A stretch of DNA of 64,000 nt from Deltaproteobacteria bacterium (GTDB lineage: Bacteria > Myxococcota_A > Polyangia > Nannocystales > Nannocystaceae): the NCBI GenBank assembly GCA_016709225.1, contig JADJEE010000012.1:1987630-2051629 (forward strand), read 5' to 3'. The notes under the pieces were generated by a model. That model ran no database searches, had not been told where the DNA came from, and worked only from the letters and a program-made list of their open reading frames with translations. The position numbers and the translations under genes were made by a program. This document shows positions 15,075 to 63,870 of the stretch, one piece after another. The stretch's first letter is position 1. The number at the start of each line of letters is the position of its first letter.

Positions 15075-15198
15075 CGGCGGCCATTCGGGCTGCTTGAGCG
15101 CGCCGCGGGCTTTGCGGCCGCGTGCCGGCAGGACGATGGTTCGCCTGCACGCACACATTCGACCGACTATCCTCGACCAGGTGCAGTCAGGTGACGAC

Positions 15199-29730: not shown

Positions 29731-30797
29731 TTAGTGAAGTCCGAGCTCGCTCTCCGAGCGATTCTCGGGTGGGTTGATCCAGACTGCCTTGGGGAGCGTG
29801 GGCACCTGCGGTGGGCCTGCGACGAAGCGCTCTGGGTTCTTCGCGAAGGCTTCGTTCATCACGAGCTGGCGCTGCGCGAGGACCTCGGTGGCGCGCCCGA
29901 AGAAGACGTCGGCGGGAGTGAGGCGAGCGATGCCGGAGTGCCGGTGCTCGTCGTTGTACCAGGCGAAGAAGCGCCGGCAGAAGTCGCGCGCGTGGTCGAA
30001 GCTCTCGAAGCGCTCCGGGAAATCTGGGTGCGACTTGAGGGTGTGGAACTCGGACTCGGAGTGCGGGTTGTCGTTGCTGACGCGCGGTCGGCTGAACGAC
30101 GCCGTGATCTCGAGGTCGCGCAGCAGCTGCTTCACAGTCTTGCCCCTGGGCACGGGCCCGCGGTCGGCGTGCAGCTTGAGCGTGCCCGGTTCGATCCCGT
30201 GGCGGTTGCACGCCTCGCGGATCAGCTTCGCCGCGAGCTCGCCGCTCTCCTCGTGGGCGAGCATCCAGCCCGGGTTGTAGCGGCTGAAGAGATCGATGAT
30301 CACGTACAGCGGGTAGTAGGTGTACTTCACCGGACCGCGCAGCCACGTCACGTCCCACGTCCAGACCTGGTTGGGTGCCGTGGCGATCAGTTCGGGTCGC
30401 GCGTACTTTGGGTGCCGGGCTTGATCGCGGCGCTCGCGGATCTCGTCCTGCAGCGCCAGAATCCGATACATCGTGCGGGGATGGCAGAGGTAGTGCTGCT
30501 CGTCGAGCAACGTGGCGTGCACGGTCGCCGGCGCCTTGTCGACGAAGCGCTCGGAGTGGAGCACCTCAAGCACGTTGGTCCGCTCGGCTTCGGAGAGCGC
30601 GCGTGAAGGTCGTCGACGTGGTCGGCGGGGGGCCATGCAGGGGCCGGCTGCCGCCAGCGGTACGCAGTGCTCCGCGGCACGCCGAGCGCCTCGCAGGCGA
30701 CCGCCACGCCGAGCTGGTCCGCGAGTTCGTCGACCGCTGCCTTCACGTCGGCTCCTCGGTGTCGTCGCTGTCCAGCCCCAACACCTCCGAGAGTTTT
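29731..30797 (-). CDS. IS3-family transposase OrfB (DDE integrase core), expressed as an OrfAB fusion by -1 frameshifting
   Basis: …VWTWDVTWLRGPVKYTYYPLYVIIDLFSRYNPGWMLA…HADRGPVP…WYNDEHRHSGIARLTP. The upstream part of the listed ORF is out-of-frame junk. Confidence 0.8.
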
Positions 30798-42134: not shown

Positions 42135-42890
42135 ATGGGTGTGCATGGGCCGAGCCGGTGCGAAACTGCGACGCGCACGTCGTCGTCGCGCCATCGCGCC
42201 GCGCGATGCTCCCGTCGCGTGTCTTCGACTGTGCCAGCGTCCCTCGTCGTCCTCGCAGGTCTTGCGGGCCTCGTCGTCGTGGCGAGCGCGTGCGAGGTGG
42301 TCGGCTCGATCGGCGGCGTCGACGACCTCGCCGCTGGCGGCAGCGACTCGGCCACCTCGACGGGTGGCACCGAGAAGCGACCCGACGGGCCGGAGCGCCC
42401 CCGCGACACCGACGACGACCTCGCGACCTCGAGCGCGGGCGCCGGCATGCCGACCGACGCATCGAGCAGCTCGGACGGGGCCGACACGCCGTACAAGCTC
42501 GACGTCGGCACTGGCAACGGTACCGGCAACGACACCGATACGGATACCGTCGGCACCTTGGACGCGGTGTGCTGCAGCGCCAGCATCGAGCCCGGCTGCG
42601 CGCAGGACTCCGAGCTCGAGGCCTGCGTCTGCGGCTTCGATGCCTACTGCTGCGAGACCGCCTGGGACGACACCTGCGTGGGCATCGCAACGTGGGGCGA
42701 GTGTGGCGGCGGCTGCAGCGGCCCCGAGATCCCGCCGACCGACTGCTGTCTCGCCTCCGAGCGCGCCGGCTGCATCGACGCCCAGGTATCGGCCTGCGTC
42801 TGCGACCACGACCCCTACTGCTGCGACGTCGCCTGGGACGACGTCTGCGTCGGCGACGTCGCGCTGCACGAGTGCGGCCTCTGCCCGTGA
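42135..42890 (+). CDS. Lipoprotein with two Myxococcus-type Cys-rich repeats
   Basis: …LAGLAGLVVVASAC lipobox. CC…C…C.C..D.YCC…WDD.CVG repeated twice. The start is uncertain (ATG at 42114 or 42135, GTG at 42216). Confidence 0.6.
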   Translation: MGVHGPSRCETATRTSSSRHRAARCSRRVSSTVPASLVVLAGLAGLVVVASACEVVGSIGGVDDLAAGGSDSATSTGGTEKRPDGPERPRDTDDDLATSSAGAGMPTDASSSSDGADTPYKLDVGTGNGTGNDTDTDTVGTLDAVCCSASIEPGCAQDSELEACVCGFDAYCCETAWDDTCVGIATWGECGGGCSGPEIPPTDCCLASERAGCIDAQVSACVCDHDPYCCDVAWDDVCVGDVALHECGLCP

Positions 42891-43031: not shown

Positions 43032-43103
43032 CTGGGTGGGCGACGCAGCTTCGTAGCCCCGGTCGTGACGTCGTACGGGAGCGTCGAGCGGGACGCGGGG
43101 CGG

Positions 43104-44675
43104 ATGGCTTCCGTCCTGATGCGGTGCGGCGACGACACGACACACCGCGCGGCGGTCCGTGCGAACCTGGCGTGCGTGCGCCCTGCTCTGCCGCTGTTCG
43201 CGTGCGTCGTCGCCCTCGCTTGCGGTCGCGTAGCGCCGGACGCGAGCCCGTCGCCGGGCGCGTCCGGCGACCCGGTGACGCCACCGACCGATGCATCGCC
43301 CACGCCCGCGACGCCCGTCGACGCGGCGAGCACCGCGGCGGCGCCCCCCGCTGCACCGCACGCGGACGCGCCGCGGCCGGAGGTGACGCCTGCCGACGCG
43401 CCTGCGGGCGAGGTCGCGGCGAGCGCAGCGATCGCGGGCGCGTTGCGTTCGCCGCTGCCACCCGGTCCGATCGCTGCGTTCGCGATCGTGGGGCCCGATC
43501 AGACAATCGTCGCGCCCATCGATCCTGCGATCGCGCCGCTGCGCGTCACCGGCATCTGGGTGCTCGACGACGCGACGGCAACTCCGAAGGTGTCGTTCCA
43601 CGCGGGCGTCGGCGCGGCGATCCCAACCTGCGCCTGCGATCGCAATGACGCGTGTGGCGAAGCGGTGAGCGATGCCGTGGGCGAGGGCCCGATCTGCAGC
43701 TGCCGCGCGCCGGGCCCGGTCGACGACGGCGTCGACGAGGGTGGCGAGTGCGAGTTCATGGACCCTCGTCCGGCAGCGCTCGTCGGCGGCGTGCTGTACA
43801 TGCAGGTCGACACGCACAACACGTGCGAAGGCATGAACCTCTACGGCGAAGACTGGTACCCGCTGACGATGGTCGCGTCACCGACCAAGCACAGCGGCAA
43901 GGGGCTGAAGCCGCGCGGCTGCGACCCCGGCGTCGCGACCGGCGTGGACGTGCTCGCGCCACGACCCGATCCACCGCCCTGCGGCCCGCGGGAGACCGAT
44001 GGCGGCTGCGACGTCTGCGACGCGATGAGCCCCAATCTCGAGGTCTTCGCGATCCAGCGCGGCGAGCTCGTGCACCTCGAGGAAGACGCGGACACCGTCG
44101 GTGGCGGCGTGCGGCGCTGGTCGTCGCGCGCGCTCACACCGAAGACTTGCCCGAGCACCGCGGACACCTGCGGCAGCACCACGGCGTTTCCGCAGGTCGA
44201 GCGCGCCGACGGCTGGTGGGTCGCGAACGACGGCGCCCATGCACTCACGCAGCAGCGCGACGGTGCGCTCGCCATCGTCAGCGCCAGCGGCACCATACCC
44301 GTGGGCAAACACGACGATGACATCCTGGGCGTGCGCTACCACGCCGATGCGCGAGCGCTCATCACCACCATGGCCACGCGAGCGCCCAGCGGCACGACCA
44401 CGTGCGAGGTGGGTGATGCCCCGGTCTCGTGGGGCACGCAGTGCGTCGAGCACATGCGTGCGGGTCGGCTCGAGGACGCGCGTGCGGCCTGCGAGCACGG
44501 GCTCGACGAGACCACGAAGCCCGCCGCGCGTGGGGCCCTGCTGTACAACCTCGGCGTGATCGCGCAGCGCTCCGGTGACACCGCAGCCGCGCGCAAACAC
44601 TTCGAGGCCTCGCTCGCCGCCCGCCCCGGCAACGCCGCCGTACGCAAGGCCCTCGCCGCGCTCGGCCCCGGCTGA
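43104..44675 (+). CDS. Lipoprotein with a Pro/Ala-rich linker, a Cys-rich middle region and C-terminal TPR-like helices
   Basis: MASVLMRCGDDTTHRAAVRANLACVRPALPLFACVVALAC signal peptide. The C-terminus reads …RGALLYNLGVIAQRSGDTAAARKHFEASLAARPGNAAVRKALAAL. Confidence 0.55.
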   Translation: MASVLMRCGDDTTHRAAVRANLACVRPALPLFACVVALACGRVAPDASPSPGASGDPVTPPTDASPTPATPVDAASTAAAPPAAPHADAPRPEVTPADAPAGEVAASAAIAGALRSPLPPGPIAAFAIVGPDQTIVAPIDPAIAPLRVTGIWVLDDATATPKVSFHAGVGAAIPTCACDRNDACGEAVSDAVGEGPICSCRAPGPVDDGVDEGGECEFMDPRPAALVGGVLYMQVDTHNTCEGMNLYGEDWYPLTMVASPTKHSGKGLKPRGCDPGVATGVDVLAPRPDPPPCGPRETDGGCDVCDAMSPNLEVFAIQRGELVHLEEDADTVGGGVRRWSSRALTPKTCPSTADTCGSTTAFPQVERADGWWVANDGAHALTQQRDGALAIVSASGTIPVGKHDDDILGVRYHADARALITTMATRAPSGTTTCEVGDAPVSWGTQCVEHMRAGRLEDARAACEHGLDETTKPAARGALLYNLGVIAQRSGDTAAARKHFEASLAARPGNAAVRKALAALGPG

Positions 44676-45208
44676 GCGCGACGGGTCCGCCGCCTGAAGC
44701 ACCCCCTCGAGCTCGGCGACCGCGAGCCGGCACGTGGCGCCCGAGGTCCGGCAAGGGCTCGCGGCGTTCACCGGGACGAGCCCGGCTCCGATGGTGAACG
44801 AACGCGGCGCGCCCGATCGCGCTCGCGCCCGTCGACGACCGCGAGCCCTGCGGACGCGTGATGCAGCGAGCACGCGGCGACGTGCAGCGCGGTCGCGGCC
44901 GATGCCACGCGATCGCACGAGCTCGCCAGGGCCTCGCTCGCGAGGCGCAGCCGCGGTGTCGCTCCGCTCCCTGCATCGCCGTCCTGCGATCCACCCACGC
45001 GCACGTAGGCCCGCTGGTCGGCCCGGGTGCGGGCCCACTTGCAGGCCGGCCCCGACGCGCAGCCACGACGCGGACAGCCCCTCCCCGCGGGTGGAGGACG
45101 GGCGCCCACGCAGGCGCCCGAATTCGCCGGCCTCGCAGATTGCTCGATCCGATCGGCGCCGGCGCGACACAGGCAGCTCGAAGAGGCCGCGACGTCCGCG
45201 GGAGACCC

Positions 45209-48200
45209 ATGCCACGACTGCTCGAGCGCCTGCGATTGACGCCTGTCCGAAGCGACTCCTACCCTGGAAAGGTGGCGGGGTCGGTCGAGCAGGCGGACAC
45301 GGTCGACGCCGCCGCGATCGAACGCGCACCCGCCCAGCCCGCAACGCCCGGCGACGATCTCGGGCTGGCCCCCGACACGATCTCGGTCGAGCGGGTGCGC
45401 GCCGCCGTTCACCGACGGGTGTTCGGCGAGGTGGTGGAGCCGGTGCGGATCGGTCGCTACACCGTGCTGAAGCGACTCGGCGCCGGTGGCATGGGCGTGG
45501 TCTATGCCGCCTACGACACCGCGCTCGACCGCAAGGTCGCGCTCAAGCTCCTGAACGCCGACACGCTCGACCCCGCGCGCGAGGCCTCGCGCCGTGCACG
45601 GCTGGTCCGCGAGGCCAAGGCGCTCGCGCGCCTGTCCCATCCCAGCATCGTGCAGGTGTTCGAGGTCGGCACCCACGAGGAGCAGCTCTTCATCGCGATG
45701 GAGTTCGTCGACGGCGTCACGCTGGGCACGTGGGTGCGTGAACGCAGCCGTGGCTGGCGCGCGATCACGGCGATGTACGTCGCGGCCGGCCGCGGCCTCG
45801 CAGCTGCCCACGCGGCGGGCCTCGTGCACCGCGACGTCAAGCCCGACAACATGCTGGTGGGACACGACGGTCGCGTCCGCGTGCTCGACTTCGGCCTCGC
45901 GGGCGACATGGCATCGCCGTCGGATGGCGACGTCGAGGATGGGAGTGCCCCGCAGCCGGCGCTCGGCCCCGCAGCGCCGCTCACCAGGACCGGCATGGTG
46001 CTCGGCACGCCGGCGTACATGGCTCCGGAGCAGCACCTGGCGCGACGCGCCGACGCCCAGAGCGATCAGTTCGGCTTCTGCGTCGCGCTGTGGGAGGGGC
46101 TGTTCGGCGAGCGGCCGTTCGTGGGCGAGAGCCTCGCGGAGCTCTCGGCCGCGGTGATCCAATCGCGACTGCACGAGCCCAGCCACGGCGCGCAGGTGCC
46201 CCGTGCACTGCGACGTTGTCTGCTGCGCGGGCTCGCGCGAGAGCCCGCACAACGCCACGCGTCGATGGACGCGTTGCTCGGGCAGCTCGAGAGCATCCTG
46301 CGCTCGAACGCCCGTCGCGTCGCGGCCGCCGGCGCGGTCGTGAGCGGGCTGCTGCTGCTGGGCGGCGTGGGGATGTTCATGCAGCGCGAGCAGACCCACG
46401 ACGCCCGCGCGGAGGCGTTGAGCAGCGAGGTCGTGGATCAGCGCTCCCGCGCCGACGAGGCCGAGCTGGCGCTGCGCGCCCGCGAAGAAGCGGTCATCGT
46501 CGCCGAGTCGCGGCTGTTGTTGCCCACCGATCCGACACGTGCGTTGGCCTCGCTGCGCCGACTGCCCGAGGCCGCGGCCGCGTGGTCGGCCCCCAGCGCT
46601 CGCATGCTCGCCGCAGAGGCGATCGAGGCCGGTGTCGCCGAGCGGATCGCCGAGCTGCCCCCGACCACGAGCGCGCGCGTGCTGTCACCCGGCGGCCGCT
46701 GGGCCTGGCACACGCAGGACGAAGGCGGCGCGTACGTGCTCATCGAGCTCGCGAGCGGCCGCCGCGTCGTGCTCGACGCGGGACCCCCCGACGTGTTCCC
46801 CGAGCTGACCTTCTCGCGTGACGAGACCCAAGTCGTGACCGCGCAAGCGGGCGCAATCCGGCTGTGGGACCTCGCGCGCGGCGACGCCCGCGAGCTCGGC
46901 AAGCTGGCCGGATTCGCGGGCGCGCGCCGCTTCGCCGACGATGGCTCGCGCGTGACGGTCATCGAACACGGTGATACGACCGTCGCGATCGTGACGCCGC
47001 TGGCGGATGACGTCGCGCCGCTACGTCGCACGCTATCCGAGGTCGAGTGGGCACCGGTGATCAACCGCGACGGCACCGAGGTGGTCGGGGGCAACGGCAT
47101 CGATCGACTGTGGGTGCACGATCTCGTTGGCGATCGCCGACGAACCCTCGCAGGTGCGGTGCGCTCGGGGCCGCAGCTGTCGCCGGACGGCCGCTGGATC
47201 GCAGCGCTCGCGGCGGACGGTCTGGCCGTGTGGCACGACGGCGCCACGACGCCGACGCTGCTCCCGATTCCCGCGGGACTGCGGGGCGACACGATCGCGT
47301 TCGATCCCGCTGGCACCACCGTCGCGCTCGCGAGCGCTGCGGGTCCGATCGTCGCGTGGGATCTCGCGAGCCGACGCTCGCGGACCATGAACACCGGCGC
47401 ACGCGCGCAGCGACTGTGGGTCATGGGCAACGGCCGCGTGGTTGGCCTGCGCGAAGACGGCAGCAGCACGCTGTTCGATCGCACCGGCCACGATCAGCGA
47501 ACGCTTCGCAGTGAGCCCGGCATCACCGACCTCGCGATCGTCCCCGATCTCGACGGCGCCCCGGCGATCGTGACGGTCGGTGAGGGCACCGAGGCGCGCT
47601 GGTGGCGATGGCCCGACGGCGCCGTGCTCGAGCGCGGCGCCGGCCCTGCCGGTGACGTGGCAATCGACGCGGACACGACGACACTGCTGTCGAGCGGTGA
47701 CGACGGTGCGGTGCGTCGCACCGACACCCATGGCAGCGTCGTGATCGTGCAGGGGAGCGCCGGCGTCGCGCCTTCGCTGGCACTGTCGCGCGACGCAGCG
47801 CGGCTGGCCGTCGGCAGCGGTGACGCAATCACCATCCGCAGCCCCGACGGTGTCGAGATCGCACGGCTGGGCGACCTGCACGGTACCGACGAGCTCCGCT
47901 TCCTCGCCGACGACGAGACCGTGGCATGGCGCGGCGTCGACGGTGTGCAGCGGTGGCGGCCGGGTGGCGACGCGGTGATGTTGCGCGCGGGCTCGTGGCA
48001 TGCGAGTGCGGTCAGCCCCGACGGGCGCAGCGTGGTCACACTCGGGAGCGAGCTGGCGCGCTTCGACGAGGGCGCCCAGGCACCGAGTTGGCGCGTCGAC
48101 GTCGAGCCTGCCTGGCGTCACGTCATCGTCGACCGCAGCGGCGAGCGCGTGCTGGCAGCCGGGGTCTCACCGACGATGACGATCTTCGACGCCGTCACCG

Positions 48201-48529
48201 GCGAGTCGCGGATCATCACCACGGCAGTCGTGGGCCTCGAGGACGTCGCGTTCGGTGCCGACACCGACACGTTGTTCGCGGTCGGCCAGCAGGCCTATGT
48301 CATCGACGCCCGCGATGGCACCACGCTCGCGTACGCGATTCCCACCGGCACGACCACGCTGGGCGATCGCAGCGTGGCCGTCGGCGCCGATGGTCGTCAC
48401 TTCGCCTACGCCGGCGCCGACGGGCTGCTGTGGCGGCGCCACTTCGACGCACCGGTGCCGGCCGCGGCGTTACAGGCGTGGGTCGCTGGCGCCGTCGCGT
48501 GCACCGATGTCCCTGAGGGCGCGCGATGA
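45209..48529 (+). CDS. Ser/Thr protein kinase with one TM segment and a large C-terminal beta-propeller (WD40-like) repeat domain, 1106 aa
   Basis: Kinase core GAGGMGVVYAA…LVHRDVKPDNML…DFGLAG…GTPAYMAPEQ. TM segment VAAAGAVVSGLLLLGGVGMF. The C-terminus has repeated …DG…V.T.S.DG… units. GGGAGAC ribosome-binding site before the ATG at 45209. Confidence 0.85.
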   Translation: MPRLLERLRLTPVRSDSYPGKVAGSVEQADTVDAAAIERAPAQPATPGDDLGLAPDTISVERVRAAVHRRVFGEVVEPVRIGRYTVLKRLGAGGMGVVYAAYDTALDRKVALKLLNADTLDPAREASRRARLVREAKALARLSHPSIVQVFEVGTHEEQLFIAMEFVDGVTLGTWVRERSRGWRAITAMYVAAGRGLAAAHAAGLVHRDVKPDNMLVGHDGRVRVLDFGLAGDMASPSDGDVEDGSAPQPALGPAAPLTRTGMVLGTPAYMAPEQHLARRADAQSDQFGFCVALWEGLFGERPFVGESLAELSAAVIQSRLHEPSHGAQVPRALRRCLLRGLAREPAQRHASMDALLGQLESILRSNARRVAAAGAVVSGLLLLGGVGMFMQREQTHDARAEALSSEVVDQRSRADEAELALRAREEAVIVAESRLLLPTDPTRALASLRRLPEAAAAWSAPSARMLAAEAIEAGVAERIAELPPTTSARVLSPGGRWAWHTQDEGGAYVLIELASGRRVVLDAGPPDVFPELTFSRDETQVVTAQAGAIRLWDLARGDARELGKLAGFAGARRFADDGSRVTVIEHGDTTVAIVTPLADDVAPLRRTLSEVEWAPVINRDGTEVVGGNGIDRLWVHDLVGDRRRTLAGAVRSGPQLSPDGRWIAALAADGLAVWHDGATTPTLLPIPAGLRGDTIAFDPAGTTVALASAAGPIVAWDLASRRSRTMNTGARAQRLWVMGNGRVVGLREDGSSTLFDRTGHDQRTLRSEPGITDLAIVPDLDGAPAIVTVGEGTEARWWRWPDGAVLERGAGPAGDVAIDADTTTLLSSGDDGAVRRTDTHGSVVIVQGSAGVAPSLALSRDAARLAVGSGDAITIRSPDGVEIARLGDLHGTDELRFLADDETVAWRGVDGVQRWRPGGDAVMLRAGSWHASAVSPDGRSVVTLGSELARFDEGAQAPSWRVDVEPAWRHVIVDRSGERVLAAGVSPTMTIFDAVTGESRIITTAVVGLEDVAFGADTDTLFAVGQQAYVIDARDGTTLAYAIPTGTTTLGDRSVAVGADGRHFAYAGADGLLWRRHFDAPVPAAALQAWVAGAVACTDVPEGAR

Positions 48530-49152
48530 GCAGCGACGAAGAGCTCTACGCGGCCTGGACCGCCGGTGATCGGGCCGCCGGCGGCCGACTCGTCGATCGA
48601 CACCTGCGCTCGATCGCTCGCTTCTTCGCCAACAAGATCTGGGACGGCGACGACGCCGAGGAGCTGGTCGGCACCACCTTCGAGCTGTGTGCCCGCACCC
48701 TGGGCAGCTTCCGCGGCGAGAGCAGCTTTCGAACCTTCCTGTTCGGCCTCGCCCACAACGTGTTGCGCAACCACATCCGCAGGCGCCGGCCCGAGATCGG
48801 CGAGATCGATCTCGAGAGCAGTGCGGTGCGTGACCTCGGGCCATCCCCGCGCACCGCCGCGGCGCGCCGACGCGAGCAGGCCTTGCTACTGCAGGCGCTG
48901 CGCGCGATCCCCCTCGAGCATCAGATCGTGCTCGAGCTGGTCTACTTCGAGGGCCTCTCGCGCACCGAGATCGCCGCCGCGCTCGAGCTGCCGGCGGGCA
49001 CGGTCGCCAGTCGGCTGCGCCGCGCCGATGAGCTCTTGCGGCAGCAGCTGCGACGCCAGGCCCACGACGCCGCCCACTTCCACGCGACCCACGACGGGCT
49101 GGCGCAGTGGGCCGAGCAGCTCCGCGAGCAGCTCGGCCGCGCCGACGGCTGA
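48526..49152 (+). CDS. ECF-type RNA polymerase sigma factor (sigma-70 regions 2 and 4)
   Basis: …FELCARTLGSFRGESSFRTFLFGLAHNVLRNHIRR… is region 2; …LEHQIVLELVYFEGLSRTEIAAALELPAGTVASRLRRA… is region 4. The ATG overlaps the kinase stop (ATGA). Confidence 0.85.
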   Translation: MSSDEELYAAWTAGDRAAGGRLVDRHLRSIARFFANKIWDGDDAEELVGTTFELCARTLGSFRGESSFRTFLFGLAHNVLRNHIRRRRPEIGEIDLESSAVRDLGPSPRTAAARRREQALLLQALRAIPLEHQIVLELVYFEGLSRTEIAAALELPAGTVASRLRRADELLRQQLRRQAHDAAHFHATHDGLAQWAEQLREQLGRADG

Positions 49153-49315
49153 GCAGGGTTTGCCGGCCGGGCTGCGAGCGGCGCCCGCATGCGCGACGTC
49201 GCGCGACGCCGCGGCGGTGGACTCCGCGTCGGGCCGACCAACCTGCGCAACCGCACGCGGCATCGCGGGAACCTTTGGCGCGCAGCGAACCACGCCGGCG
49301 CGGGGGAACTCGCGG

Positions 49316-50422
49316 ATGGATGTCGGATCAACCGTGCGACGCGCGGTGCTCATGGGGCTCGTCGCACTGCCATGCGCATGCAACGACGTGCGCAGCGATC
49401 GGGGCGCGGAGGGTGGCGCGGTCGCGACGATCGCGAGCGCGGCCGACGACTCCGGCGTCGCCCAGGGCACGCTGGGTGGCGACGGCGACGGCGACGCAGG
49501 CCCGGACAGCGGCGCCGATGACGGTCCGCTGGACGGCACGGGCGCGAGCGTGTTCGACGTCGGCGGCCCCTCGGGCGGCGGTGAGACCGGCCCCGTCATC
49601 AACGACGACGAGTGCCAGAAGATCGACTTCCTGTTCGTGATCGACAACTCGGGTTCGATGTTCAACGAGCAGCAAGCGCTGGTGTCGAGCTTCCCCGGGT
49701 TCATCGCTGCGATCCAGCAGAAGGTCAACGCACAGAACTACCAGATCATGGTGGTCGACACGGATGCGGCCCACGCAAACCTCTGCACCGACGTGTGCAT
49801 GACGCTGCCCAACTGCTTCGGCACGCCGTGCAACAGCATCCCGACACCCACCGTCTGCGACGAGACCCTGGGCGCCGGCGTGACCAAGAGCAGCGCCGGC
49901 CTCGAGTGCGGCGTGACGGCACCGGATCGCTTCATGGTGGACGCGCAGCCGGATGTCGGCGGGACGTTCGCGTGCATGGGCAAGGTCGGCATCACCGGGC
50001 AAGACGTGGAGCGCCCGATGGACGCGATGGTCGAGGCCGTGACCAGCCAGGCCGAGCCCGGCGCCTGCAACCAAGGCTTCCTGCGCGACGACGCAATCTT
50101 GGTGGTCACGTTCATCACCGACGAAGAGGACGACGGCGACTCGCTGGGCGACCCCGCCAGCTGGAAGCAGGCCCTGGTCGCGGCCAAGGCCGGCAACGAG
50201 GCGGCCGTGGTGGTGCTCGGCCTGGTCGGCGATCCCGACGTGATGGGTGGCACGTGCGGGCCGCTCGGGCTCGCCGAGCCTTCACCGCGCCTGCGCACCT
50301 TCGCGGAGTCGCTGCAGTTCGGCAGCTGGGGCTCGATCTGCGCGGTCGACTACGCGCCGTTCTTCGCCGACGCGGTCGAGGTCATCGACTCGGCGTGCGA
50401 GCAGTTCGATCCCGAAGGCTGA
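49316..50422 (+). CDS. Lipoprotein with a von Willebrand factor A (VWA) domain
   Basis: MDVGSTVRRAVLMGLVALPCAC lipobox. MIDAS motif DFLFVIDNSGSM. GGGGGAA ribosome-binding site. Confidence 0.7.
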   Translation: MDVGSTVRRAVLMGLVALPCACNDVRSDRGAEGGAVATIASAADDSGVAQGTLGGDGDGDAGPDSGADDGPLDGTGASVFDVGGPSGGGETGPVINDDECQKIDFLFVIDNSGSMFNEQQALVSSFPGFIAAIQQKVNAQNYQIMVVDTDAAHANLCTDVCMTLPNCFGTPCNSIPTPTVCDETLGAGVTKSSAGLECGVTAPDRFMVDAQPDVGGTFACMGKVGITGQDVERPMDAMVEAVTSQAEPGACNQGFLRDDAILVVTFITDEEDDGDSLGDPASWKQALVAAKAGNEAAVVVLGLVGDPDVMGGTCGPLGLAEPSPRLRTFAESLQFGSWGSICAVDYAPFFADAVEVIDSACEQFDPEG

Positions 50423-50505
50423 CGCCGCGCTGCCACGCCGCGGCCCCTGGTGCAGGGCCCTCGCACGTCAGCGACGAGCGTGCGCACGACGACGCGTACC
50501 CGTGG

Positions 50506-51063
50506 TCACACCGGCTGCGCGTGCAGCAGCTTCATCAGCACCGTGTGATCGGTGTGATCGCGAACACCCGGGAGATGCAGCAGGCGCCCGAGCTTGCCGA
50601 GCCCATGGTTGTTGAGCAGCTCGAGCGAGTGCATCACGATGCCGCCGGGGTGCTGCGGGTTGCCGACGTCGATGTCGACCTCGATGGTCTCGCCCTCGGC
50701 CCAGCCGATCTGGACCGACATCACGGCGGTGGTCTGTCGCACCGCGTCGGTGATGCCGTGGTGCCGCGCGAAGCTGTCCCACTTGAAGGCATGCGTGCCC
50801 CGATCGGTGTTGTCGCGCACCGCCGCCACGAACTCGGCGCTGTAGTCGAAGAAGAGCCGGTCGTCGCGGATGCCCCCCACGCCGTCCCGCAGGCGCAGCA
50901 TCGCGACGCCCAGCTGCGCCCGCAGGACCAGCGCGAACGTGATGTCGAAGAACGCCGCGCGGCGATGCTTGGAGAGGCCATCGAACGCGGCGCCCGAGAT
51001 GCCCGAGTTGGAGAGGATCTGTCGCTGCCGCGGCCCGAGGCCGTCGAAGTTCGCGTGCGCCAT
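50506..51063 (-). CDS. Hypothetical protein, 185 aa
   Basis: Clean ATG with a GGGAG ribosome-binding site, coherent codon bias, no domain recognised. Lies downstream of the giant helicase gene. Confidence 0.5.
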   Translation of the reverse strand: MAHANFDGLGPRQRQILSNSGISGAAFDGLSKHRRAAFFDITFALVLRAQLGVAMLRLRDGVGGIRDDRLFFDYSAEFVAAVRDNTDRGTHAFKWDSFARHHGITDAVRQTTAVMSVQIGWAEGETIEVDIDVGNPQHPGGIVMHSLELLNNHGLGKLGRLLHLPGVRDHTDHTVLMKLLHAQPV

Positions 51064-51215
51064 CGTGATCGAGCTCCCGAGGGTATGTGCCGCGCAGCGG
51101 CTGCGGTTCCCGGCGAGGTGCAGAATTTCCGCCGCCGGCGCGCCTGCACCAGCTCGAACCCCCGCCTGGGGTGGCGCGAGCTGGCGCGGCCGGCGTGCGG
51201 CGCCCGATGGGGCGC

Positions 51216-54200
51216 CTAGCGGCGACGAGTCGCGCGCCGCTCGATCTCCGCCACGACGTCGGCACGGCGGCGCGACCAGGTCGCCGCATCGACGTGCATC
51301 ACATCCCATCCCCGCAGCCGCAGCACCGCAGGTCGGTGGAGATGGCGTTCGAAGGCGTCGGCTGCATCGGCGCCCTCGTCGGTGAGCACCGCGAGTACGA
51401 AGTCCGGCGTGTCGGCGGCGCCGATCGCCAGCGGTATGCGGAACTCCGACGCGCCCAGGCCCAGCTCGCAGCGCAGGCCGGTGCGCTCGAGCGCCAGCGC
51501 GATCTGGACCGCGAGCGGCACGTGCCCCTCGAACGAGGCACGCTCGCGCTCGCCCGCGGCGTTGCGTCGGCGCCCGCGCACGTCGTCGAGCACCTGCTGC
51601 GCCTGCAGACGCTGCCCCTTGCCGAGCAGGAATGCGAACTCGAGGTAGGCCTTGAACAGTCGCGGGCCATCGTGGGTGGCGTCACCGACGTGCAGCAACT
51701 CGGGGTCGAACGAGGCGACCACGTAGCACTCGGCCTTGGCGCGGGAGATCGCGACGTTGAGGCGCCGCTCGCCGCCGCGTTGCCCGAGCGGACCGAAGCG
51801 CGCCGGCACGTAGCGCTCGCTCGCGCCGCCCTTGCGGGTGCGCTCGACCGGCGCGTGGCCGAGCGAGAACAGGATGACGTCGCGCTCGTCGCCCTGCACC
51901 GACTCGAGGTTCTTCACGAACGGTCGTCGATCGATGGCATCGACGGTGGTGGCAGCCCGCCACGCCGCGGCGAATCCGTCGTCGGCGGCGACGCGGGCCT
52001 CGACCGCGTCGAGCACGGTCTGACGCTGGCGGAGGTTGAACGTGACGACCCCGATGGTCGGCGGCTCGCTGCGCGACAGCAGCTCGGCGATGAGCGCCAC
52101 GACGCGTTCGGCCTCGGGGCGATTGAGCCCGGCGTCGTACTGCCCGCCCTCCACCGCGATCCACCGCAGGGCCGGCGGCGCGGTGGGCCCCTGCGTCGAG
52201 GGGATGGTGAGCAGCTCGCCGTCGTACATCGCGTGGTTGGAGAACGCGATCAACGACTCGTCGCGGCAGCGGTAGTGCCACTGCAGGCCCGCGTGGGGAC
52301 AGCGCGCGCGCGCCAGCGCCAGCAACGACTCGGCCGCGAACACGTCGCGCACCGCGAGTTCCTCGGCCGAGCGATCTTCGTCGTCGGTGCTGCTGGTGCC
52401 GAGTTCGAAGTACGACGACGGCGGCATCTGCTTCTCGTCGCCAGCGATGACCACCCGCTGCGCCCGCAGCATCACCGGCAGACCCGACTCGACGGTGCAC
52501 TGCGAGGCCTCGTCGAAGATCACGAGGTCGAACAGCGGCTCGCGCGGGAACAGCACCGTCATGGTCTCGGGCGACAGCAACCAGCACGGCATCACATCGA
52601 GCAGGCCGACGTCGGCGAACTCGCGGACGAAGCGGCGCAGTGGCATCAAGCGGCTCTTCTTGCCGACCTCCTTGAGCAGCGACTCCTTGGCGCGCTGCGG
52701 GTCGCTCCGGCGCGCGCGATAGCCCGCGTTCGGCGTCTGCAGCAGCTCGGCCTGGTCGGCCCGAGCGACGATGGCAGCAACCTCGAGCGCTGCGATCTCC
52801 GGCTCGAGCCGCGTCATCGTCTCGATCGCACGGTCCGCGCGCTGGGCGGTCGCGATCGTGCCGAGATCGTCGATGCGTGGCTGCAGGTTGCGGGCGCGCT
52901 CCAGCTGCGCCGCCGCCCATGCCCGCGCGATCGACTCGCGCCAGTCGGTGAAGGGGCGACCCGCGAGCGCCGCGGCCACGCGATCGAGCAACGCCGGCGC
53001 GGCCGTCATCGTCTCGCACGCCAGCGCGGTCCAGCCGTCGAGCTCGCGCAGCCGCGTCGCGTCGCGGGCGAGCCGGTCCGCGAGCTCGCGTAGTGCCGTG
53101 GCGTCGTCGCGCAGGACCCACGGGAACACCCCTGCGATGGCCGCCAGCGCCTGCAGCAGCCGCTGTTGCGCCTCGGACTGCGCGAGACGGTGCGCCGCCC
53201 ACTCGTCGGTGGCGGCGCGCTCGAGCGAGATGCCGATCGCCGCCAGCGTCGTGGCCGCGGCACGCACCGGGGCCGCGAGTCCGGCCAGCAGCTGCAAGCG
53301 CTCGATCGCCGCGCCCGCGCTGGCGGCATCACCTTGCGCCCGCGCCGACAGTCCGAGCCGCTCGAACAGCGCCCGCGCTTGCGCCCACGCGCGCGCGGCG
53401 TGCAGCCGCGATTGCAGCCGCGCGAGAAACTCGGCATCGAAGCCGGCCGCCGCCTGCTCGGGCCACAGTCGCACCAGCGACGCGCGCACCTCGGCCCGCG
53501 TGCGCCACCACAGCGGCGAGACGATCCGCGTCCAGCGACCGGCGAACGACTGCAGCACCGTCACCGCGCGCTCGGCGGGATCGTCGACCACGAGCCCGCC
53601 GGGGCTCCACTGCGCCAGCGCCTGCGACTCGCCGCGCCAGCGCTCCACGAGCGACGCGACACCGTCGTCGCCGTGCAGGCACAGCGCGGTGAGCAACGCG
53701 ATGTCGTCGGGGCCCTGGCAGGCCGCACGCGCGGCGTGCAGCGCGAGCAGACCCTCGCGTGCGCGCGCCAACGCGTCGCGATCGACCGGCGCCGGCGCCA
53801 GCGCAGCGTCGAAGGCGTCCGCGTGGGCGATGGCGTCGCGAAGCTGCACGCGCATCGCCGTGAGCGCCGCGTCGTCGTACCCGCGCAGCGAGCCGCGCGC
53901 GAGCCCCCGCTGGCGCCACCACGCGCTCGGGGCCCACAGGTCCTGGTGCGGATGCAGCCGCTCGACCAGCTCGAGCAGTCGCAGCAGGCGTTCGCGATCG
54001 ATACCCGCGAGCGCGGGATCGACGACGTGGGGCTCGCCGCTGGCGACCATCGTGATGAGCTGGCCGACGCACAGGCCGGCGTCGTCGATCCGCTGCGCGA
54101 GCAGGTTGCGATCGGCCTCGAGCGCGGCCTTGGCCTGCTCGTACTCCATGCGCAGCAGCTCGAGGCGGCCCGGCGGCGAGGCCGAAGGTCGCTTGGCCTC

Positions 54201-56948
54201 GAGGCGCACCCGCACCCGCTCGAACAACGGCTTGCGGTCCTCGTGCACGTCGTGCACCACCGCGAGGTACTGTCCGAGGCCCCGAACCTCGAGTCGCTGC
54301 CCGACCACGTCGAGCGCCGCACGCTTCTCGGCGACCACCGCCACCCGCTCGCCGCGACGCAGCGCGTCGGCCACCAGATTGACGATGAGCTGGCTCTTGC
54401 CGGTCCCCGGCGGGCCATCGACGACCGTCACGCGGTGGCTGCGACACTGCGCCAGCACGGCGCGCTGGCTGGGATCGGCCGCGACCACCGGCCAGCCCGG
54501 CGCACCCGGGTCGGTCACCGCGGGCTCACCGACCACGCCGGTCGTGGCGGGCAGCAACGCGGCCGCCGAGGCCAGCACGGTGGCGGGCTCCTTCGCGAGG
54601 TCGGCGAGCTCGCGCAGCAGCGCGTCGTAGTCTTGCAGGAGATCGGAGCTCGACTGGGGGAACAACCCCAACAGCGCGCACTCCTCGATCGACAGCCGCG
54701 GCGGGGCCTGATCGAGGTCGCGGTCGCGATCGCCAAACGGCACCAATGCGGTCGACTCCACCGCCACCGGCACGCCGATCTCGCGCAGCTTCGCGAGCAT
54801 GGCTTCGACCCCGCGCGCGGGATCGGCCACAATGTCGTCGAGCTCGCGTCCGAGTTCGTCGGGGAAGGCGAGCGTGGCCTTGTTGAAGAGCAGGCGCAAC
54901 AGCGACTGGTTTGCGATCGGCTCCTCGTCGCTGCGCCGGCGCAGCGAGAAGCCCCGCGCACCGCGACCGTCACGCTCGAGCTCGACCGGGAACAGCACCA
55001 GCGGTGCTCGCACGCCGTAGCCGACCTCGGTCACGCCGCGCGGCGCGATGTTGCCGACCAACACGGGATAGCCCACGTACAGCTCGTTGGCGCCGGTCTC
55101 CTCGATGCGATCACGGACCTCGCGGTGCAGCTCTCGCAGCTGCGCGGAGCAGGCCTCCGCGGCGTCGTGTCGGCCGGCGTCGTCGGCGGTCACCAACACC
55201 GCCTCACGGCCGCCGCGCACCAAGGTCAGCGTGCGCTCGGCGGTGCCGGGGCGGATCGCATCGAGCGCGACGAGATCGAAGCAGCGCCCGCGCACGAGCC
55301 GACGCAGCCGCACCGAGGGACTGCGTCCGTCGCCGGAGATCAGCTCGTCGCGCAGCCGCGTGATGGCGTCCGTCAGCGCCCGCCTCGAGGCGTCGATCGG
55401 CGCCGCCGCGGCCGATGGCGGCTGACGGGTCGCCACCAGCCGCACCGGCTGGTCGAGCGGCGCACCGTGCAGTGGCGGGCTGACCTCGATGCCGCGATCA
55501 CGGAACAGCTGCGCGAGGGGTGCGAGGGCCTCGGGCGTGGTCGCCTGCACGCCGGCGAGCCGCAGCAGACGACGCGGTGCGATCGACGACTCACCGCGAC
55601 GCTCGACGCTGTCGCACAGCGCGGCGAGGGCGTCGGCAACCTCGTGCTTGCGCACCGGCAGCGGGATCGCGACCTGCTCGAGCAGCTCGAGCTCGAGCGG
55701 CGACTGCATCGCGGCGATCGCAGGGCGGATCCAGCGGCGGAACTCGCCGCCGTGCCCGAGCGCCTCACCGATCGCGAGGATCGTCTGCACCTCGCGCGCG
55801 TCGACCACGTCGTCGGCACCCATCACGTGGGTGAGCAGCAAGAACAGGCTGCGCACGAGATCCGGCCCGCCGGCACGGACCATGCCGCCGGTCTCGTAGA
55901 AGCGGGCGAGCGCGACCTCGGGATCGAGCAACTCCGACCAGCCGGGGATGGTGCGACCGAAGGCGTCCTCGATCGCGTCGAGCTCCTCGGGCGAGATCAC
56001 GCCATCGGCAGCGGCGACCAGCACCGCGCACGCGAGCGCGCACTCGCCCAGGAACGCCGGCGGCTCGTCGCGCGCGTCGAAGTCGACGTCGACGCGGCTC
56101 GAACCCAGCGCGCGCGCGATCACGGCATCGACCTCGGCGAGGCTGCGCGTGCTCGCGCCGCGCCCCGTCAGGCGCTGGTACACATCGCTCTCCGAGAACA
56201 GCCACAGCGCCCAGGCGCGCAGGCTGTGCTCGGGGTGCGTGGTCGCGAGCGCGGCTTCACCGGCCGCTAGCGTGCGATCCATGAGATCTCGCGCCTGCTC
56301 GAGGTAGGCCGCGGTGTCCCACGTCAACGCGTCGCCGGGCAGGCCCGTGGTCGCGATCATCTCGAGCCGCAGCGCTGCGTCGAGATCCTGGCACGCGAGC
56401 AGGCCGAAGCGATCGGCCGTGATCTCGCGCGCGACCGCGAGTCGACGCGCGGCCTCGGCCTGGGCGCTCGGCAACACCCCCGCCTCGGCCAGCTGCAGCC
56501 CCGCCAGCGCGGTGGCCCCGAGCTCCGTCCAAGGCCCGTGCGCCAGCCAATGACCCAGCTCGTGCCCGAACAACGCCACGGCGGCACCGTCGTCGAGCAG
56601 CGTCAACATGCGCCCCTGGATCTCGAGCAGGATCGGCGACTGCACGAAGTGCAGCGCCGCGTTCTCGCGGCCGCTCGACTGGTAGAGCTCGAGCGCGCCA
56701 TCGATCGCCAGGGCCGCTCGCGCCGCCTCGGCCTGGGCATGGGCGGCGGGTGCCATCGTCGGCGACAGCGCGAGCGCGTCGGCGTGCAGGCGGCGACGAA
56801 TCGCCTCGGCATCACGCGGCACCAGCGAGGCCCGCTGCACCGCGAAGCCGGGGAAGCCGTCGAGCGCGGCGGCCAGCTGCCGCTCCAGCGAGAACCGCAC
56901 CGCCTCGACGTCGAGACCGACCAAGCTCGTGCGCGTCGTGGCCGTCAC
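51216..56948 (-). CDS. Giant (1910-aa) multidomain protein. N-terminal M48-like HExxH metallopeptidase motif, a TerB-like domain, a DUF4011-like region, an SF1 Upf1/DNA2-type helicase core (AAA_11/AAA_12), and a C-terminal DUF3320/REase-like (DUF559-type) nuclease fold.
   Basis: FGHELGHWLAHG…REITADRFG (HExxH with a downstream E..ADRF, as in M48). TerB-like …VISPEELDAIEDAFG…VMGADDVVDAREVQTILAIGEALG. Walker A VVDGPPGTGKSQLIV, Walker B VIFDEASQ, LESVQGDERDVILFSL, RRLNVAISRAKAECYVV. C-terminal …CELGLGASEFRIPLAIGAADTPDFVLAVLTDEG… GTG start overlaps the TGA of the upstream permease. Confidence 0.85.
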   Translation of the reverse strand: MTATTRTSLVGLDVEAVRFSLERQLAAALDGFPGFAVQRASLVPRDAEAIRRRLHADALALSPTMAPAAHAQAEAARAALAIDGALELYQSSGRENAALHFVQSPILLEIQGRMLTLLDDGAAVALFGHELGHWLAHGPWTELGATALAGLQLAEAGVLPSAQAEAARRLAVAREITADRFGLLACQDLDAALRLEMIATTGLPGDALTWDTAAYLEQARDLMDRTLAAGEAALATTHPEHSLRAWALWLFSESDVYQRLTGRGASTRSLAEVDAVIARALGSSRVDVDFDARDEPPAFLGECALACAVLVAAADGVISPEELDAIEDAFGRTIPGWSELLDPEVALARFYETGGMVRAGGPDLVRSLFLLLTHVMGADDVVDAREVQTILAIGEALGHGGEFRRWIRPAIAAMQSPLELELLEQVAIPLPVRKHEVADALAALCDSVERRGESSIAPRRLLRLAGVQATTPEALAPLAQLFRDRGIEVSPPLHGAPLDQPVRLVATRQPPSAAAAPIDASRRALTDAITRLRDELISGDGRSPSVRLRRLVRGRCFDLVALDAIRPGTAERTLTLVRGGREAVLVTADDAGRHDAAEACSAQLRELHREVRDRIEETGANELYVGYPVLVGNIAPRGVTEVGYGVRAPLVLFPVELERDGRGARGFSLRRRSDEEPIANQSLLRLLFNKATLAFPDELGRELDDIVADPARGVEAMLAKLREIGVPVAVESTALVPFGDRDRDLDQAPPRLSIEECALLGLFPQSSSDLLQDYDALLRELADLAKEPATVLASAAALLPATTGVVGEPAVTDPGAPGWPVVAADPSQRAVLAQCRSHRVTVVDGPPGTGKSQLIVNLVADALRRGERVAVVAEKRAALDVVGQRLEVRGLGQYLAVVHDVHEDRKPLFERVRVRLEAKRPSASPPGRLELLRMEYEQAKAALEADRNLLAQRIDDAGLCVGQLITMVASGEPHVVDPALAGIDRERLLRLLELVERLHPHQDLWAPSAWWRQRGLARGSLRGYDDAALTAMRVQLRDAIAHADAFDAALAPAPVDRDALARAREGLLALHAARAACQGPDDIALLTALCLHGDDGVASLVERWRGESQALAQWSPGGLVVDDPAERAVTVLQSFAGRWTRIVSPLWWRTRAEVRASLVRLWPEQAAAGFDAEFLARLQSRLHAARAWAQARALFERLGLSARAQGDAASAGAAIERLQLLAGLAAPVRAAATTLAAIGISLERAATDEWAAHRLAQSEAQQRLLQALAAIAGVFPWVLRDDATALRELADRLARDATRLRELDGWTALACETMTAAPALLDRVAAALAGRPFTDWRESIARAWAAAQLERARNLQPRIDDLGTIATAQRADRAIETMTRLEPEIAALEVAAIVARADQAELLQTPNAGYRARRSDPQRAKESLLKEVGKKSRLMPLRRFVREFADVGLLDVMPCWLLSPETMTVLFPREPLFDLVIFDEASQCTVESGLPVMLRAQRVVIAGDEKQMPPSSYFELGTSSTDDEDRSAEELAVRDVFAAESLLALARARCPHAGLQWHYRCRDESLIAFSNHAMYDGELLTIPSTQGPTAPPALRWIAVEGGQYDAGLNRPEAERVVALIAELLSRSEPPTIGVVTFNLRQRQTVLDAVEARVAADDGFAAAWRAATTVDAIDRRPFVKNLESVQGDERDVILFSLGHAPVERTRKGGASERYVPARFGPLGQRGGERRLNVAISRAKAECYVVASFDPELLHVGDATHDGPRLFKAYLEFAFLLGKGQRLQAQQVLDDVRGRRRNAAGERERASFEGHVPLAVQIALALERTGLRCELGLGASEFRIPLAIGAADTPDFVLAVLTDEGADAADAFERHLHRPAVLRLRGWDVMHVDAATWSRRRADVVAEIERRATRRR

Positions 56949-63237: not shown

Positions 63238-63870
63238 TTGGTCGATGTGGGCCACGCCCTCGCACTGCCCTGGACCTTCGCCGCACCGGAGGACCAGACC
63301 TTGAGCCACGAGGCCGACGTGGCCCTGTTGCGCGCGGCGCTGCGTGCCGATGCGCGCGCGCAGCTCGAGCTCGTGCGTCGACTGACGCCGACGTTGCGCG
63401 CCGTCGCGACCGCGATCCTCGGGCGGGGTGGTGATGCCGACGACGGCGTGCAAGTGTCGCTCATGCGAGTGCTCGAGCGTGCATCGACCTACCGCGGCGA
63501 TGCATCACTCGAACGCTGGGCGCGCACGGTAGCCGTGCGCGCGTGCCTGCGGCTCGCGGAGTCGGCTCGCCGCCACGACCGCACCGACGACGCGATCGAA
63601 GATCACGCCGAGCCCGAGGACGGCGACGACGCGCTGATCGAGACCCTGCCGGGGCCGCTCGAGAACTACCTCGAACAGCTGCCGGCGGCGCAGCGACAGG
63701 CGCTGTTGTTGCGCCACGCGTTGGGCTACTCGGTGATCGAGATCGCCGAGCTCACCAGCGTGCCGGTCGACACCATCAAGTCGCGGCTGCTGTTCGGCCT
63801 TCGTGCGCTGCGCAAGTCGATCCGACGCGACTCGTTCGTGGCCCGCGCGATCGGGGGCCACCGTGGCTGA
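63238..63870 (+). CDS. ECF-type RNA polymerase sigma factor
   Basis: Region 2 …LMRVLERASTYRGDASLERWARTVAVRACLRL…; region 4 …QRQALLLRHALGYSVIEIAELTSVPVDTIKSRLLFGLRALR. Start TTG at 63238 or GTG at 63247. Confidence 0.8.
   Translation: MVDVGHALALPWTFAAPEDQTLSHEADVALLRAALRADARAQLELVRRLTPTLRAVATAILGRGGDADDGVQVSLMRVLERASTYRGDASLERWARTVAVRACLRLAESARRHDRTDDAIEDHAEPEDGDDALIETLPGPLENYLEQLPAAQRQALLLRHALGYSVIEIAELTSVPVDTIKSRLLFGLRALRKSIRRDSFVARAIGGHRG

Follow-up and report, generated by a model that had tools for sequence, protein, structure and literature searches.

The 64,000-nucleotide stretch of DNA analyzed here, called the window throughout, comes from a Deltaproteobacteria bacterium of the Nannocystaceae (assembly GCA_016709225.1, contig JADJEE010000012.1, positions 1,987,630 to 2,051,629 of the forward strand) and carries a gene for a Hanks-type Ser/Thr kinase directly followed by a gene for an extracytoplasmic function (ECF) sigma factor. 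The raw lists of open reading frames (ORFs) are noisy because the G+C content of the window is about 72%, and the real genes were picked out by their third-position GC content (GC3). Three of them lie on the forward strand at the locus, encoding the kinase (45209..48529, 1106 aa), the sigma factor (48526..49152, 208 aa), and a probable lipoprotein resembling von Willebrand factor type A (VWA) domains (49316..50422, 368 aa; GC3 0.91, hence coding). Read directly, the sequence cgcgcgATGAgc has the sigma ATG at 48526, one base ahead of the kinase TGA (48527-48529), which confirms the statement of an earlier note on this DNA that the 1106-aa kinase ends in an ATGA (48526..48529, forward strand) whose ATG starts the sigma factor. 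The overlap implies that kinase and sigma factor would be translationally coupled. The gene order given in that note also stands, with the distance to the third gene corrected from 160 to 163 bp; the ATG of that gene is at 49316, not 49317. The same overlap is present in several of the related loci described below (L079, L080, L081, L086, and L087), and a 97%-identical strain (L086/L087) retains the arrangement as a whole.

By its sequence, the first protein is a Hanks-type (eukaryote-like) Ser/Thr kinase. The Pfam domain Pkinase is found at aa 84-349 (nt 45458-46255, E 7.7e-36), and the catalytic motifs are all intact (G-loop GAGGMG at 91, VALK at 110, HRDVKPDN at 207, DFG at 227, and APE at 272). 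Hydropathy analysis reveals a lone strongly hydrophobic stretch at aa ~371-392 (nt 46319-46384), in agreement with the single transmembrane segment predicted earlier, and the extracytoplasmic repeat region spans aa ~420-1106. Within the C-terminal ~700 aa, about 10-12 blade-like repeats of the form xSPDGxxhh follow each other at a spacing of roughly 40 aa. Pfam beta-propeller matches to this sensor region all remain below the cut-off (Beta-prop_THOC3, E 1e-5), and WD40 chains of the Protein Data Bank (PDB) are matched weakly (E 0.002-0.03). An exhaustive HMMER search with the sensor region returned 2706 distant relatives, repeat proteins matched in multiple stretches, and no close family; a word-indexed homolog search with the same domain returned 3 proteins only. 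The repeats thus speak for the periplasmic beta-propeller suggested in the earlier note, and since the profile matches are weak, a double beta-propeller is probable, not proven.

Just N-terminal of the kinase domain, sigma-linked kinases share a conserved helix-like motif, [IL][KR]AR[AL]xxRLFG, which in the window kinase reads VRAAVHRRVFGE (aa ~60-75). A second Hanks kinase of the window (13194..15158, reverse strand) has a kinase domain 34% identical to the first and is without an adjacent sigma factor of this family. PADLOC matches of the kinase to defense-system kinases (PD-T4-6, mad6) were set aside as generic kinase-domain similarity.

The second protein is, on sequence grounds, an ECF (group 4) sigma-70 factor. 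It matches Sigma70_r2 (aa 22-88) and Sigma70_r4_2 (aa 120-167, in a sigma4 region of aa 120-172) above the Pfam cut-offs and scores 80.4 bits against TIGR02937 (sigma70-ECF; cut-off 42.9), with RpoE models among its better NCBIfam matches. Residue frequencies of the family were taken over 69 kinase-linked members. In region 2.2, the window sigma factor reads D43-A-E-E46-L-V-G-T-T-F (a DAEE motif). Family members carry an acidic residue at position 45 in 88% and at position 46 in 100% of cases, and Ser or Thr occurs in 0% at both. The position of the Glu in the canonical 'QE' dipeptide is acidic in 3% only and is usually Arg; in the small clade of the window sigma factor it is Thr50.

Regions 2 and 4 are joined by a disordered, Ser/Thr/Pro-rich linker (aa ~97-112, with residues 107-112 predicted disordered), for which the family consensus is D-F-x-x-T-S-V-x-D-L-G-P-S-P-[ST]-[ST]. 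Ser or Thr is found at linker position 100 in 93%, at 107 in 65%, at 109 in 84%, and at 110 in 67% of the members, and D103 is acidic in 100%. The window sigma factor has Ala at position 100 and carries S98, S99, S107, and T110. Past sigma4 follows an extension of ~30 residues (aa ~179-208, nt 49060-49149) with the consensus [ST]-T188-x-x-x-L-[DE]-x-W195-A-x-x-L-R, which forms two helices in the model described next. T188 is Ser or Thr in 97% of the members, and 68 of the 69 kinase-linked copies have W195. Judged by this conservation, the C-terminal extension is a hallmark of the family.

An AlphaFold2 (AF2) model of the sigma factor, built from a 42-sequence alignment, reached a predicted local distance difference test score (pLDDT) of 84 and a predicted template-modeling score (pTM) of 0.80, with the extension helices at residues 182-190 and 192-206. 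The model matches the structures of sigmaE, SigW, and AlgU. More specifically, it superposes on the closed sigma2-sigma4 conformers of SigW/RsiW, CnrH/CnrY, and EcfG/NepR (TMt 0.75-0.85, root-mean-square deviation (rmsd) ~4-5 Å), with TMt values of 0.82-0.85 to the SigW/RsiW and CnrH/CnrY anti-sigma complexes. No superposition was obtained with sigma factors bound to RNA polymerase (RNAP; rmsd ~27 Å). The model fits a closed, inactive ground state that would be intrinsic to the sigma factor. A second ECF sigma factor encoded in the window (63247..63870, forward strand) belongs to a different family and shows no tblastn similarity to the first.

Relatives of the sigma factor were collected by scanning one genome per GTDB species, which gave at least 577 sigma matches, and the best 78 loci were analyzed. 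Every relative belongs to the Nannocystaceae or to another part of the Myxococcota, and single genomes hold several paralogs. The kinase domain, the sensor region, the sigma factor, and the third protein of the window were compared with the 78 loci by tblastn, and each sigma copy was then classified. A Hanks kinase domain lies at most 4.5 kb from the sigma gene in 69 of the 74 informative copies (93%). The background in the same loci, one kinase per 29 kb at more than 4.5 kb from the sigma gene, predicts a chance adjacency of about 28%. For 51 of the 69 kinase-linked sigma factors, the neighboring kinase domain shares 44% identity or more with that of the window, compared with ~30-35% for unrelated kinases. 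The commonest layout, seen in 37 copies, is head-to-head, the kinase gene lying directly upstream on the other strand; the layout of the window, with the kinase upstream on the same strand, is found in 13 copies.

Pairwise identities among the sigma factors correlate with those among their adjacent kinase domains (r = 0.44, a value reached in 0 of 999 permutations), and shared species phylogeny contributes to this value. Among the sigma orthologs with usable context, the closest (P0005, locus L079) is 74% identical, and the gene upstream of it, 43% identical over kinase aa 267-1105, keeps the ATGA overlap; the kinase copy in L086 is 97% identical. The linkage far above the chance expectation, the co-divergence, and the overlap in L079 bear out the earlier view of kinase and sigma factor as a conserved genetic pair. 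Conservation between pairs does not extend to the kinase sensor region, for which weak tblastn matches were obtained in only two of the 78 loci (L004 and L008). Because the sensor region varies and the kinase domain and sigma factor stay linked, the family is best described as a dedicated pair with interchangeable sensors.

All-against-all clustering of the 787 ORFs called in these loci yielded two families present in most of them, the sigma factor in 72 loci and the kinase in 54. The remaining clusters each occur in at most 13 loci and are plainly unrelated; these minor clusters include TetR, uracil-DNA-glycosylase-like, SppA-like peptidase, DksA/TraR, thioredoxin, LuxR, MurB, gyrase/topoisomerase subunit, histidine kinase, and SDR proteins. 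The clustering of neighbors around the 78 loci revealed no conserved anti-sigma-like family and no conventional anti-sigma gene in the conserved neighborhood. No PP2C phosphatase was found among the neighboring genes examined in the window, a scan that began after its first 29 kb. In four loci (L025, L031, L040, and L051), a gene for an SppA-like signal-peptide peptidase of ~600 aa abuts or overlaps the 3' end of the sigma gene, and in two of these (L031 and L040) the kinase lies upstream. The peptidase may be a third partner specific to a sub-family.

The third protein has no Pfam family above the cut-off and 0 matches in a sequence-profile search of the PDB, and in NCBIfam it matches only 'MIDAS family adhesin' with 26.7 bits against a cut-off of 700. 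Its more than 1800 homologs include none with a precomputed Pfam domain, several are labelled 'VWFA domain-containing' in UniRef, and those with a named source come from Nannocystaceae-like bacteria. Judged by these named records, the family appears restricted to such bacteria. An alignment of 37 sequences shows a lipoprotein-type signal with an invariant Cys22, followed by a disordered, low-complexity linker rich in acidic residues, Gly, and Ser, and by a core of ~270 aa with long insertions. The protein has 12 invariant Cys in this alignment, and the core contains the invariant residues D110-N-S112-G-S114 (DxSGS), D148-T149-D150, and D269-E270. The family consensus of the lipobox is L-x-A-C-G; the window version, L-P-C-A-C22, departs from [LVI][ASTVI][GAS]C at the -3 position, and we describe the protein as a probable lipoprotein.

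The AF2 model of the core (pLDDT 85-96) consists of alternating strand and helix elements. A Foldseek search of the PDB with this model returned integrin beta chains (I-like/VWA domains) as all of the top 50 matches, with E-values of 1e-5 to 6e-4 and a probability of 1.0. The TM-scores normalized to the query are 0.34-0.40, low because about 100 residues of the protein are disordered and the core carries insertions. Since no sequence model finds the VWA domain, the fold was established through structure prediction. The predicted structure supports a VWA-type (integrin beta-I-like) fold with a motif like the metal ion-dependent adhesion site (MIDAS). Of the earlier assignment as a VWA domain with a MIDAS motif, the fold and the invariant DxSGS hold; no sequence model recognizes the domain. 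Compared with integrin beta I-like/VWA domains that carry a MIDAS, the likeness of the third protein lies in the predicted core fold and the invariant D-x-S-x-S; the 12 invariant Cys, the long insertions, and the lack of a match to sequence models set it apart. Conservation of the synteny of kinase, sigma factor, and VWA-like gene, which the earlier note asked to check, was not borne out, as a VWA-like gene is near the sigma gene in 1 of the 78 loci, and there 3 kb away. On this gene-order evidence, the VWA-like gene is at most a local target outside the conserved module.

A short sequence motif connects the VWA-like gene with a further gene of the locus, encoding an orphan protein of 185 aa (50506..51063, reverse strand; with a coding GC3 signal), which is convergent with the VWA-like gene. 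The sequence GGGAACC occurs in just three copies in the 64-kb window, and two of these begin 48-49 nt upstream of the two genes. At both, GGGAACC is followed after 17 nt by CAnnCC. The first, GGGAACC-N17-CACGCC (49267..49296, forward strand), starts 49 nt upstream of the VWA-like ATG, and the second, GGGAACC-N17-CATACC (51082..51111, reverse strand), starts 48 nt ahead of the ATG (51063) that opens the 185-aa gene. The combined pattern GGGAACC-N17-CAnnCC has 2 matches in the window where 0.01 are expected, a statistic that is inflated because its -10-like part was defined from the same two sites. The pattern has the form of a putative ECF promoter, with a GGAAC -35 element and a spacer of 16-17 nt.

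The closest VWA-like orthologs (L083/L084) have GGGAACC at a similar distance 5' of the gene, and so do L124 and L116, in which CAC comes 16-17 nt after it. Within the upstream regions of 67 VWA-like homologs, 7 matches were found against 1.2 expected, a weak enrichment contributed by only ~4 independent lineages; a multiple alignment of these regions was uninformative, the sequences being too diverged. From their upstream sequences, dependence on an ECF sigma factor is plausible for the VWA-like gene and the 185-aa gene, and the adjacent sigma factor is the obvious but unproven candidate for the regulator of both. The idea that the VWA lipoprotein is a regulated output gains some new indirect support from the shared promoter-like motif. 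The 185-aa product has no Pfam or PADLOC match. In L086, the gene is present, still beside the big helicase gene described below, but separated from the VWA-like gene by two inserted genes, which encode a DUF6544 protein and a P-type ATPase.

Upstream of the kinase gene lies an unusually long, GC-rich, non-coding gap of 534 bp (44676..45208), presumed to be the promoter region of the kinase-sigma operon. This gap has no coding GC3 signal in any frame, no sigma70-like promoter, no Rfam match, and no GGGAACC, and Rfam and sigma70-promoter/terminator scans of 44500-51300 gave nothing meaningful. Around the sigma paralogs, the top k-mer signal 5' of the sigma gene, CCGAACAG, was considered as a promoter and rejected, as it is coding sequence of the N-terminus (ARLFG) of the divergent kinase. 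In 16 paralogs (loci L002-L050), the sequence CTGCTAnnnT, shaped like an extended -10 element (TGnTAnnnT), lies 16-58 nt 5' of the sigma start codon. This suggests leaderless transcription of these sigma genes by a housekeeping-type sigma factor, a situation that would be compatible with regulation of the protein itself.

ECF sigma factors coupled to kinases are, as the earlier note stated, a recognized arrangement in the literature (PMC7826278, PMC8999054). The kinase-associated groups are ECF43, ECF59-62, ECF217, ECF267, and ECF283 (PMC7826278), and ECF43 is the only one studied, through EcfP/PknT of Vibrio parahaemolyticus and EcfK/PknS of Xanthomonas citri (PMC8999054, PMC13147305). EcfP has STTA in place of the acidic DAED motif and is activated when PknT phosphorylates a Thr there (PMC8999054, PMC13147305). 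The ECF43 consensus is QTTA, with the phospho-acceptor Thr in 88% of the members (PMC13147305, PMC8999054), and EcfK has an additional functional phosphosite in the linker, T106 (PMC13147305).

The reading of the window locus that we favor, with modest confidence that it is correct, is a two-gene signaling module in which the kinase phosphorylates and activates the ECF sigma factor, with the VWA-like gene and the 185-aa gene as likely local outputs. The single-pass kinase would sense an envelope or extracellular cue via its large extracytoplasmic repeat sensor and autophosphorylate in response. It would then phosphorylate the co-translated sigma factor, and this phosphorylation would switch the sigma factor from a closed, inactive form to one able to bind the RNAP core and start transcription. 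The active sigma factor would transcribe promoters of the GGGAACC type, which locally would yield the VWA-like surface lipoprotein and the 185-aa protein. Direct phosphorylation, its site, and its activating sign are proposed by analogy with EcfP/PknT and EcfK/PknS, and the two targets are putative. Since region 2.2 is already acidic, a restoration of charge there of the ECF43/EcfP type is unlikely, and the phosphosite more likely resides in the linker or the C-terminal extension. By analogy, the more likely candidates are S98, S99, S107, and T110 of the linker (compare EcfK T106) or T188 of the extension.

Several observations weigh against this reading, besides the inflated motif statistic. 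The hallmark of ECF43 is absent from the family, given the acidic positions 45 and 46, and the best-conserved Ser of the linker, at position 100, is the one replaced by Ala in the window sigma factor. In L079, the closest ortholog with context, the site of the VWA-like gene is occupied by a TetR gene; of the VWA-like homologs with context, the three nearest sit in unrelated neighborhoods. The strict GGGAACC-N17-CAnnCC pattern is absent from 1.15 Mb of loci, nearly all around paralogous sigma genes; it is therefore not a family-wide autoregulatory promoter. AF2 models of ECF sigma factors may default to closed forms through a bias of the training set, which bears on the closed state proposed here. 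Finally, our view of the genome spans the 64-kb window, and an anti-sigma factor encoded elsewhere is possible.

Among the other explanations, one places the control within the sigma factor itself, with the C-terminal extension acting as a built-in anti-sigma element that would keep sigma2 and sigma4 closed and from which the kinase would release it, either by phosphorylating T188 or the linker or by binding. The near-invariance of T188 and W195 in a hallmark extension, the closed model with its helical extension, and the regulatory C-terminal extensions known in ECF41, ECF42, and ECF238 (PMC7826278) agree with such cis-inhibition. However, contacts of the extension with sigma2 and sigma4 are assumed, not read from the model, the pLDDT of the extension is just 54-79, and closed ECF conformers are a general AF2 tendency. 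We consider this explanation rather unlikely. Given similarly little credence is the related proposal that the family constitutes a distinct, unclassified kinase-dependent ECF group, in which the switch would not be a regained charge in region 2.2 but the phosphorylation of the disordered linker or of T188 in the extension, which in the absence of this phosphorylation would lock sigma2 and sigma4 closed and auto-inhibited. If true, this would be a third mechanism of sigma control by phosphorylation, and the numerous paralogous kinase-sigma pairs, with their differing sensors, would amount to a sensory system open to expansion.

Equally doubtful is indirect control, in which the kinase would target an anti-sigma factor, an anti-anti-sigma factor, or a transcription factor encoded elsewhere, with the sigma factor merely co-expressed. 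The absence of a third conserved partner in the 78 loci, the co-divergence of sigma factor and kinase as a pair, and the fact that direct phosphorylation is the established mechanism in both studied kinase-ECF pairs all argue against it. In its favor, the mycobacterial kinases PknB and PknD act on anti-sigma and anti-anti-sigma factors (PMC8999054, PMC1847690), a sigma factor with an acidic region 2.2 may bind core RNAP unaided, and the genome was viewed over 64 kb only.

Less probable still, the kinase could serve as a membrane tether and true anti-sigma factor, its cytoplasmic part sequestering the sigma factor until a signal frees it, with no need for catalysis. Translational coupling would favor a stoichiometric complex of this kind, and a conserved N-terminal helix (RAxLxxRLFG-like) stands ahead of the kinase domain in sigma-linked kinases; yet the catalytic residues of the kinase are all conserved, the genes are divergently transcribed and uncoupled in most relatives, and Pfam finds no anti-sigma domain. 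The earlier note had cast the kinase in the role of the anti-sigma factor, and this holds only loosely, in the sense of a cognate regulator and not of sequestration, as the studied kinases activate their sigma factors. Chance adjacency in a kinase-rich genome, with the sigma factor controlled at transcription only, could appeal to the hundreds of kinases encoded by myxobacteria (PMC11032199), to the background kinase density in the loci, and to the housekeeping-like extended -10 element just 5' of the start codon in 16 paralogs, but it is disfavored by the synteny statistics (93% linkage against ~28% expected), the dedicated kinase-domain subfamily of ~50% identity, the co-divergence, and the conserved ATGA overlap, and is effectively excluded.

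Three further genes of the window were characterized in passing. The big helicase gene (51216..56948, reverse strand) encodes a protein of 1910 aa with an N-terminal Peptidase_M48 domain, DUF4011, an AAA_11/AAA_12 helicase core of superfamily 1, and a C-terminal REase_MTES_1575 nuclease domain; in PADLOC it matches the candidate defense model PDC-S37 (E 1e-158) and Hhe (1e-74). A secreted Cys-rich protein (42219..42890, forward strand) contains two modules of the form CVCxxDxYCCxxAWDDxCVG...EC and a low-complexity linker of Asp, Thr, and Gly, with no Pfam match. An rve-family integrase (29731..30636, reverse strand) is probably the transposase of an insertion sequence.

The locus is one copy of a large kinase-sigma family expanded in the Nannocystaceae and of an already recognized kind, and by itself it is to be expected where a myxobacterial genome abounds in kinases and ECF sigma factors. 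According to reviews, kinase-linked ECF sigma factors that keep an acidic region 2.2 probably work differently from ECF43; none is characterized, and their mechanism is open (PMC8999054). The family described here is of this DAED-retaining type, has its at least 577 matches in GTDB species representatives, and offers at this locus candidate regulatory elements (the linker and the extension) together with two candidate target promoters beside the sigma gene. The locus is thus a convenient entry point to a possible second mode of sigma control by phosphorylation.

Like ECF43, the window family has a sigma factor beside a membrane-spanning Hanks kinase whose extracytoplasmic sensor varies, no nearby anti-sigma gene, and a Ser/Thr-rich linker. 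It keeps an acidic region 2.2 (DAEE) and has a C-terminal extension, whereas ECF43 uses a Thr switch. Judged by this hallmark, the sigma factor falls outside the one experimentally characterized kinase group.

ECF267 is a small group confined to Proteobacteria, with a conserved kinase and a FecR-like putative anti-sigma factor that contains tetratricopeptide repeats (TPR) (PMC7826278). The window shares with it a lineage formerly counted among the Proteobacteria, a kinase neighbor, a position near the RpoE-like clade, and an upstream TPR gene (43065..44675). The product of this gene was weighed as an anti-sigma factor of the FecR-like, ECF267 type and rejected, as it is a secreted lipoprotein with no FecR/anti-sigma or cytoplasmic domain. 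Furthermore, it is a singleton among the 78 loci, around which no FecR-like neighbor is conserved.

The planctomycetal and actinobacterial groups ECF59, ECF61, ECF62, ECF217, and ECF283 are likewise linked to kinases without an anti-sigma gene, and some have a DAED-like motif with nearby Ser/Thr (PMC8999054). They belong to other phyla, are all experimentally uncharacterized (PMC8999054), and were compared by description only. With ECF41, ECF42, and ECF238, the window family shares a conserved extension past sigma4 and the lack of an anti-sigma gene. The extensions of those groups consist of SnoaL-like or TPR domains (~100-200 aa) or of Cys-rich tails, whereas that of the window family is ~30 aa long, contains no Cys, and co-occurs with a kinase.

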